Source of the DNA: Escherichia coli | GTDB taxonomy: Bacteria; Pseudomonadota; Gammaproteobacteria; Enterobacterales; Enterobacteriaceae | NCBI RefSeq assembly: GCF_003334385.1 | Contig: NZ_QOWN01000160.1 | Direction: 5' to 3' (one strand) | DNA: 624 nucleotides | Shown here: positions 174 through 624 of the stretch, one piece after another | Numbering within the stretch: the stretch's first letter is position 1 | Layout of the letters: each line of letters opens with the position of its first letter | The notes under the pieces: model-generated | Databases searched by the model: none | The model's input: the letters and a program-made list of their open reading frames with translations, nothing else | Told to the model about the DNA's origin: nothing | Program-made: the position numbers and the translations under genes

Positions 174-624
<451 letters not shown>

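Follow-up and report, generated by a model that had tools for sequence, protein, structure and literature searches.

The window, by which we mean the whole 624-nt stretch of DNA analyzed here, is very probably the end of an ordinary E. coli rrn operon like rrnA or rrnE of K-12, and sequence comparison shows that helix 98 (H98) of its 23S rRNA is one of several coexisting alleles. The form of H98 that it carries is a known within-genome polymorphism, found in four of the seven K-12 operons, and is no pointer to another genus. The feature is already known and ordinary, and the division of the K-12 operons at H98 into A, C, E and H on one side and B, D and G on the other has been published by Kofman et al. 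in 2024 (PMC11046459). We present it as a clean, small case of an rRNA surface helix that changes by compensation and is shuffled among operons by conversion, two processes that are both well documented.

Layout of the window and the helix 98 hairpin

Three parts of an rrn operon end lie in the window, all on the minus strand. Positions 174 to 624 hold the 3′ end of 23S rRNA (nt 2454-2904), as identified by the Rfam model RF02541 and by the RefSeq annotation of the identical K-12 genes rrlE and rrlA. Positions 81 to 173 hold a 93-nt 23S-5S intergenic spacer of the rrnA/E type, which was placed by annotation mapping. Positions 1 to 80 hold the beginning of the 5S rRNA gene (rrf), its first 80 nt, as identified by RF00001 (56.6 bits, window 1-78) and by the start of RefSeq rrfE, which corresponds to window 80. 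The match to RF02541, the bacterial LSU rRNA model, covered the minus strand of window 174-624 with 484.5 bits (E 7.4e-158, model 2480-2925), far above the gathering score of 50. Only the window edge cut the model, and there were no defects in the match, which places the segment in the LSU family. A hit to RAGATH-30 at window 65-121 (minus strand), across the start of the 5S gene and the spacer, reached 20.1 bits where the gathering score is 59.5 (E 0.24) and was rejected as a chance match.

The annotated 3′ end of 23S, nt 2904, corresponds to window 174, and a 23S position is therefore obtained as 3078 minus the window coordinate. By this numbering, window 273-287 (minus strand) is 23S nt 2791-2805, in domain VI between H97 and H99. 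The sequence-only reading had taken this region to be H98, and the numbering bears it out. The plus strand reads GACTCTCAAGGAGTC, and its reverse complement, in RNA sense, is GACUCCUUGAGAGUC, that is GACUC-CUUGA-GAGUC, which we refer to as allele A. Numbering, covariation and fold all contribute to the assignment of the hairpin. The 5′ arm of the stem, GACUC (nt 2791-2795), occupies window 283-287 on the minus strand and includes U2794 at window 284, which is a C in rrlB, rrlD and rrlG. The 3′ arm, GAGUC (nt 2801-2805), occupies window 273-277 on the same strand and includes A2802 at window 276, the partner of U2794, which is a G in the same three genes. Between the arms, the loop CUUGA (nt 2796-2800) occupies window 278-282, also on the minus strand, with C2796 at 282 (U in rrlB), G2799 at 279 (A in rrlB) and A2800 at 278.

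As a cross-check on the placement, we considered the 23S positions outside H98 at which rrnC and rrnD differ from the window, which are 2525 in rrnC and 2547-2549 in rrnD; on the 23S helix map, we take the former to lie in H91 and the latter in H92. Kofman et al. report that rrnC is polymorphic in H91 and rrnD in H92 (PMC11046459), and Nissley et al. place nt 2796-2800 in the H98 loop (PMC10578474).

Folding of the isolated hairpins predicts -4.4 kcal/mol for the window allele, which has a 5-bp stem and an open 5-nt loop, and -7.4 kcal/mol for the rrlB allele, which gains a sixth pair, U2796-A2800. The folding energy of H98 is unremarkable, with z = -0.14 in a 31-nt context and z = -2.1 for the 15-mer. 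Because the score of the bare hairpin is not significant in the 31-nt context, we drew the support for the helix from covariation instead (see below).

Helix 98 in the K-12 operons and across E. coli

We aligned the 23S-5S ends of all seven rrn operons of MG1655 (NC_000913.3) to the window. There were no mismatches to rrnA or rrnE; all 624 nt are the same in 23S including H98, in the spacer and in rrfA and rrfE, and the two operons are inseparable here. The rrnH operon had two mismatches, at spacer position 161 and 5S position 69 of the window, and more were found in rrnC, rrnB, rrnD and rrnG. At H98, MG1655 rrlA, rrlC, rrlE and rrlH match the window exactly (GACUCCUUGAGAGUC) and have identical flanks, whereas rrlB, rrlD and rrlG carry GACCCUUUAAGGGUC. 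The latter three, which include the conventional numbering reference rrlB, resemble the window in the helix, its length, the 5-bp stem and 5-nt loop, A2800 and the flanks, but where the window has U2794-A2802, C2796 and G2799, they have C2794-G2802, U2796 and A2799, and they also differ at spacer positions 161 and 148. The split of A, C, E and H versus B, D and G thus falls at exactly four H98 sites. Outside H98, the seven K-12 copies vary at only four 23S positions of the window, for a total of 8 in 451 nt. Since the four H98 sites make up half of these eight variable positions, the hairpin behaves as a small cassette.

These results bear directly on the sequence-only reading, which had described H98 in the window as departing from a K-12 sequence by a compensatory swap of C-G to U-A together with loop changes. 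Relative to rrlB, this description is exact, the changes being U2794/A2802, C2796 and G2799. The comparison sequence, GACCCUUUAAGGGUC, is real in rrlB, rrlD and rrlG, although it is only one of the two alleles of K-12. That reading had also named a finding that would speak against it, namely K-12 rrl genes with an identical H98; four of the seven rrl genes have one, and rrlB, rrlD and rrlG do not.

The remaining differences among the operons were distributed in other ways. At window 553 (23S 2525), rrnC has A for G, and at window 529-531 (2547-2549), rrnD has GAU for AUG; in both cases the window has the majority form. In the spacer, window position 161 is G in rrnA and rrnE, C in rrnH, rrnG, rrnD and rrnB, and A in rrnC; an extra one-base T at window 148 is present only in rrnA, rrnE and rrnH; and a G at window 91 is present only in rrnC. 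Position 69, in the 5S gene, is A in rrnA, rrnB and rrnE and C in the other operons. The combinations found in the spacer and 5S do not run parallel to the H98 split, which suggests that the operons are mosaics. A putative example is rrnC, which has the same H98 allele as the window but departs from it at 2525 in 23S, at window positions 161, 148 and 91 in the spacer and at window position 69 in 5S; it combines an A-type H98 with the one-base-shorter spacer form of rrnB, rrnD and rrnG (window 148).

The older paper closest to this subject appears to be that of Anton et al. from 1999 (J Bacteriol 181:2703), which reportedly covers the diversity of the E. coli 23S gene and of the spacer that follows it. 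We took a census of H98 in 5,426 complete E. coli genomes using 45-nt allele-specific megablast queries, in which every 28-mer seed spans all four variable sites, such that a match could be seeded by the exact allele only. A 101-nt query gave a total of 37,893 H98 sites. Allele A, the window form (GACUC CUUGA GAGUC), accounted for 24,432 copies in 4,526 genomes, or about 64% of copies, and allele B, the rrlB form (GACCC UUUAA GGGUC), accounted for 8,094 copies in 2,394 genomes, or about 21%. Three additional alleles were found, each with an intact 5-bp stem: A′ (GACUC CCUGA GAGUC; 1,912 copies, 425 genomes), C (GAGAC UUAGA GUCUC; 1,880 copies, 366 genomes) and D (GAGAC UUUAA GUCUC; 525 copies, 91 genomes). 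Of these, C and A′ were discovered by aligning fetched matches of low identity. Together, the five alleles cover all but about 1,050 (2.8%) of the E. coli H98 copies. Arithmetic on the genome counts places A and B together in at least 1,494 genomes, and each of the five alleles makes up seven of seven copies in some strains. A hybrid with the stem of A and the loop of B (GACUC UUUAA GAGUC) had no exact copy in the E. coli collection; it is present in Kosakonia sp. S29. Nine copies of allele A were on plasmid-typed records, such as NZ_CP170376.1 (169 kb, in two places), which could mean that some large plasmids carry rRNA operons or that parts of chromosomes were mis-assigned.

The census also bears on a second suggestion of the sequence-only reading, that H98 might come from a divergent rrn copy. 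A different rrn copy is indeed what separates the window from rrlB, but "divergent" is the wrong word for an allele that most E. coli copies carry. As a caution, the gene that usually serves as the E. coli 23S reference, rrlB, carries a minority allele at H98, and K-12 itself is split four to three. A mismatch to rrlB at H98 is uninformative on genus or strain. This is relevant to typing with the 3′ end of 23S, to probe design, to variant calling against a single rrn reference and to the insertion of MS2 tags in H98.

Covariation, conversion and allele function

For covariation, we used an alignment (A2) in which 105 H98 segments collapse to 16 distinct Enterobacteriaceae sequences. Across the 16 types, 98.8% of cells were paired, compared with 79% in shuffles (0 of 500 reached the observed value) and 16-49% when the partner was slid. 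In two of the five stem pairs, both partners change: 2793:2803 has CG in eight types and GC in eight, and 2794:2802 has AU in seven, UA in five, CG in two and UG in one, with a C.A mismatch in the remaining type. The other three pairs, 2791:2805 (G-C), 2792:2804 (A-U) and 2795:2801 (C-G), are invariant. In the loop, the fifth base, A2800, is A in 15 of the 16 types and in 103 of the 105 sequences. Other alleles in the family, including GAGAC UUAGA GUCUC, GAGAC UUUAA GUCUC and GAGCC UUUAA GGCUC, form a 15-nt hairpin as in the window but have 2793:2803 and 2794:2802 swapped on both sides and a variable loop at 2796-2799. The alignment therefore upholds the earlier description of H98 as a variable peripheral helix showing covariation.

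Several observations concern individual positions or genomes. At 2796:2799 (window 282 and 279; A2 columns 14 and 17), the 16 types have UA ten times, CG three times and UG three times, and never C:A. This comparison has low power, since C:A is the sole combination that would count against pairing and the three types with C are relatives of one another, and the hypergeometric p-value of about 0.04 ignores relatedness. As a weak hint, these two bases could form a closing pair like that of a CUUG loop, which would leave A2800 bulged. In Mangrovibacter phragmitis, two loci of one genome gave GACUC UUUAA GGGUC, with U.G at 2794:2802, beside GACUC UUUGA GAGUC, and the U.G type is possibly an intermediate of the compensatory change from C-G to U-A. 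A Citrobacter portucalensis locus reads GACCC UUUAA GAGUC; its C.A mismatch may stem from incomplete conversion of the cassette or from an error in assembly.

The role of A2800 has been described by Nissley, Kamal and Cate (2023, PMC10578474). In their work, A2800 flips from the H98 loop and contacts G9 and A10 in H1 and U2629 in H94, a four-nucleotide contact. The mutation A2800U, or MS2-tag designs that allow A2800 to pair with U2796, lowered 50S thermostability and left activity at 37 °C unaffected. The remainder of the H98 tip is poorly ordered, and H98 is poorly conserved and missing in many organisms (PMC10578474). Our alignment agrees with this picture, the stem and A2800 being retained while the other bases drift. 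The window keeps A2800 and the stem that would present it for the H1-H94-H98 contact of the E. coli 50S, which is known from cryo-EM. The mutagenesis constructs in that study were based on an rrnB plasmid. Regarding conversion, a rate of 3.6e-4 per genome per generation has been reported for E. coli rrn genes, and in 13,750 generations of mutation accumulation conversion explained every rRNA change (PMC8022953). The distribution of alleles among operons fits gene conversion.

From these elements we propose the following model. H98 is a short hairpin on the 50S surface in which selection appears to hold the 5-bp stem and A2800, with A2800 bridging H98 to H1 and H94 and stabilizing the subunit. 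Elsewhere in the stem and loop, bases would be free to vary as long as pairing is kept, which would make the alleles near-neutral. If selection acts on pairing and A2800 only, a change from C-G to U-A at 2794:2802 would be tolerated, and its route probably passed through U.G, as in the Mangrovibacter type. Gene conversion between rrn operons would then spread or erase each 15-nt cassette, and the outcome could be a four-to-three mix, as in K-12, or seven copies of a single allele, as in other strains.

The alleles could instead be functionally unequal, with "specialized" ribosomes in which H98 tunes 50S stability or assembly and selection keeps the polymorphism within genomes and across genera. 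If this were true, the alleles would be a long-lived polymorphism common to Enterobacteriaceae genera and maintained by selection rather than by drift and conversion. The predicted stem of the window allele is about 3 kcal/mol weaker than that of rrlB (-4.4 versus -7.4), and because the window has C2796, there is no U2796-A2800 pair to compete with docking of A2800; this is the pairing that was blamed for the destabilization of MS2-tagged 50S subunits (PMC10578474). The alleles could then differ slightly in the ease with which A2800 docks. Kofman et al. also name H98 as one of the polymorphisms of possible importance (PMC11046459), and alleles A, B and C are found again in several genera and side by side within single genomes. 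However, the same study traced losses of activity to H91 (rrnC) and H92 (rrnD) and not to H98 (PMC11046459), and natural strains with seven of seven copies are known for each of the five alleles, which indicates that no mixture is required. Frequent conversion and near-neutral compensatory change would suffice without selection. We consider functional inequality of the alleles unlikely and favor the model of near-neutral alleles shuffled by conversion.

Helix 98 in other genera and the origin of the window

We scanned the GTDB species representatives once with the pattern TTCTCCCT-N13-21-CTGAAGGAACG, which returned 114 loci, mostly Enterobacteriaceae 23S genes and otherwise chance matches. The sequence-only reading had inferred from H98 that the source was not a K-12-type E. 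coli and might be another enterobacterium, with Salmonella, Klebsiella, Enterobacter and Citrobacter as candidates, such that H98 would serve as a genus-level signature. The window 15-mer does occur in Enterobacter asburiae, Enterobacter sp. JUb54, Kluyvera cryocrescens, Kluyvera genomosp. 3, Klebsiella indica, Klebsiella michiganensis, Trabulsiella odontotermitis, Buttiauxella izardii, Citrobacter koseri and one uncultured Enterobacteriaceae genome. Its presence in so many genera means that the proposed tabulation by genus yields no genus-level signal. The rrlB form was found in Escherichia whittamii, Leclercia sp., Buttiauxella agrestis, Enterobacter mori, K. michiganensis, K. indica and others, and single genomes hold mixtures, with A, B and C together in K. 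indica and A and B in K. michiganensis. Since alleles are mixed within genomes of several genera, the H98 sequence is not genus-diagnostic. The identical 15-mers across genera could reflect shared ancestry, convergence or recombination between genera.

The window as a whole gave a clear answer. By megablast, it is carried by all 5,426 complete E. coli genomes, with a best match of at least 99% in 3,951 E. coli records and 100% identity over 624 nt in many, such as K-12 MG1655, C600 and J53. One of the 100% matches in MG1655 is rrnE, located between yjaA/metA and purH. In contrast, among 95 rRNA-bearing loci of other species, the best full-window identity outside Escherichia was 96.4%, in Klebsiella pneumoniae, followed by 95.9% in Citrobacter koseri. 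Given complete identity to K-12 rrnA and rrnE that extends through the fast-evolving spacer, and at most 96.4% elsewhere, the inference of another genus fails, and we regard such a source as extremely improbable. We assign the window to E. coli, an assignment to be read as Escherichia/Shigella, since Shigella is absent from the collections.

The least credible explanation of all is that sequencing or assembly created the difference, or that it marks a decaying, pseudogene-like rrn copy: the general difficulty of assembling rRNA repeats is all that speaks for it, against 24,432 copies of the allele in 4,526 complete genomes, a stem preserved by two-sided change and a remaining window that scores 484.5 bits on the LSU model and is free of defects.

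Two records recovered alongside these comparisons were unusual in other respects. The GTDB representative CP089930.1, labeled Escherichia coli strain E69, is only 97.5% identical to the window and carries allele A′, with a 23S-5S end that diverges more than is usual in E. coli. A 1,067-bp contig of a Levilactobacillus tujiorum assembly (NZ_JAAXLK010000048.1) carries an Enterobacter-type 23S 3′ end with GAGAC CUUGA GUCUC at H98, as in E. hormaechei, and is almost certainly contamination in a Lactobacillaceae assembly.
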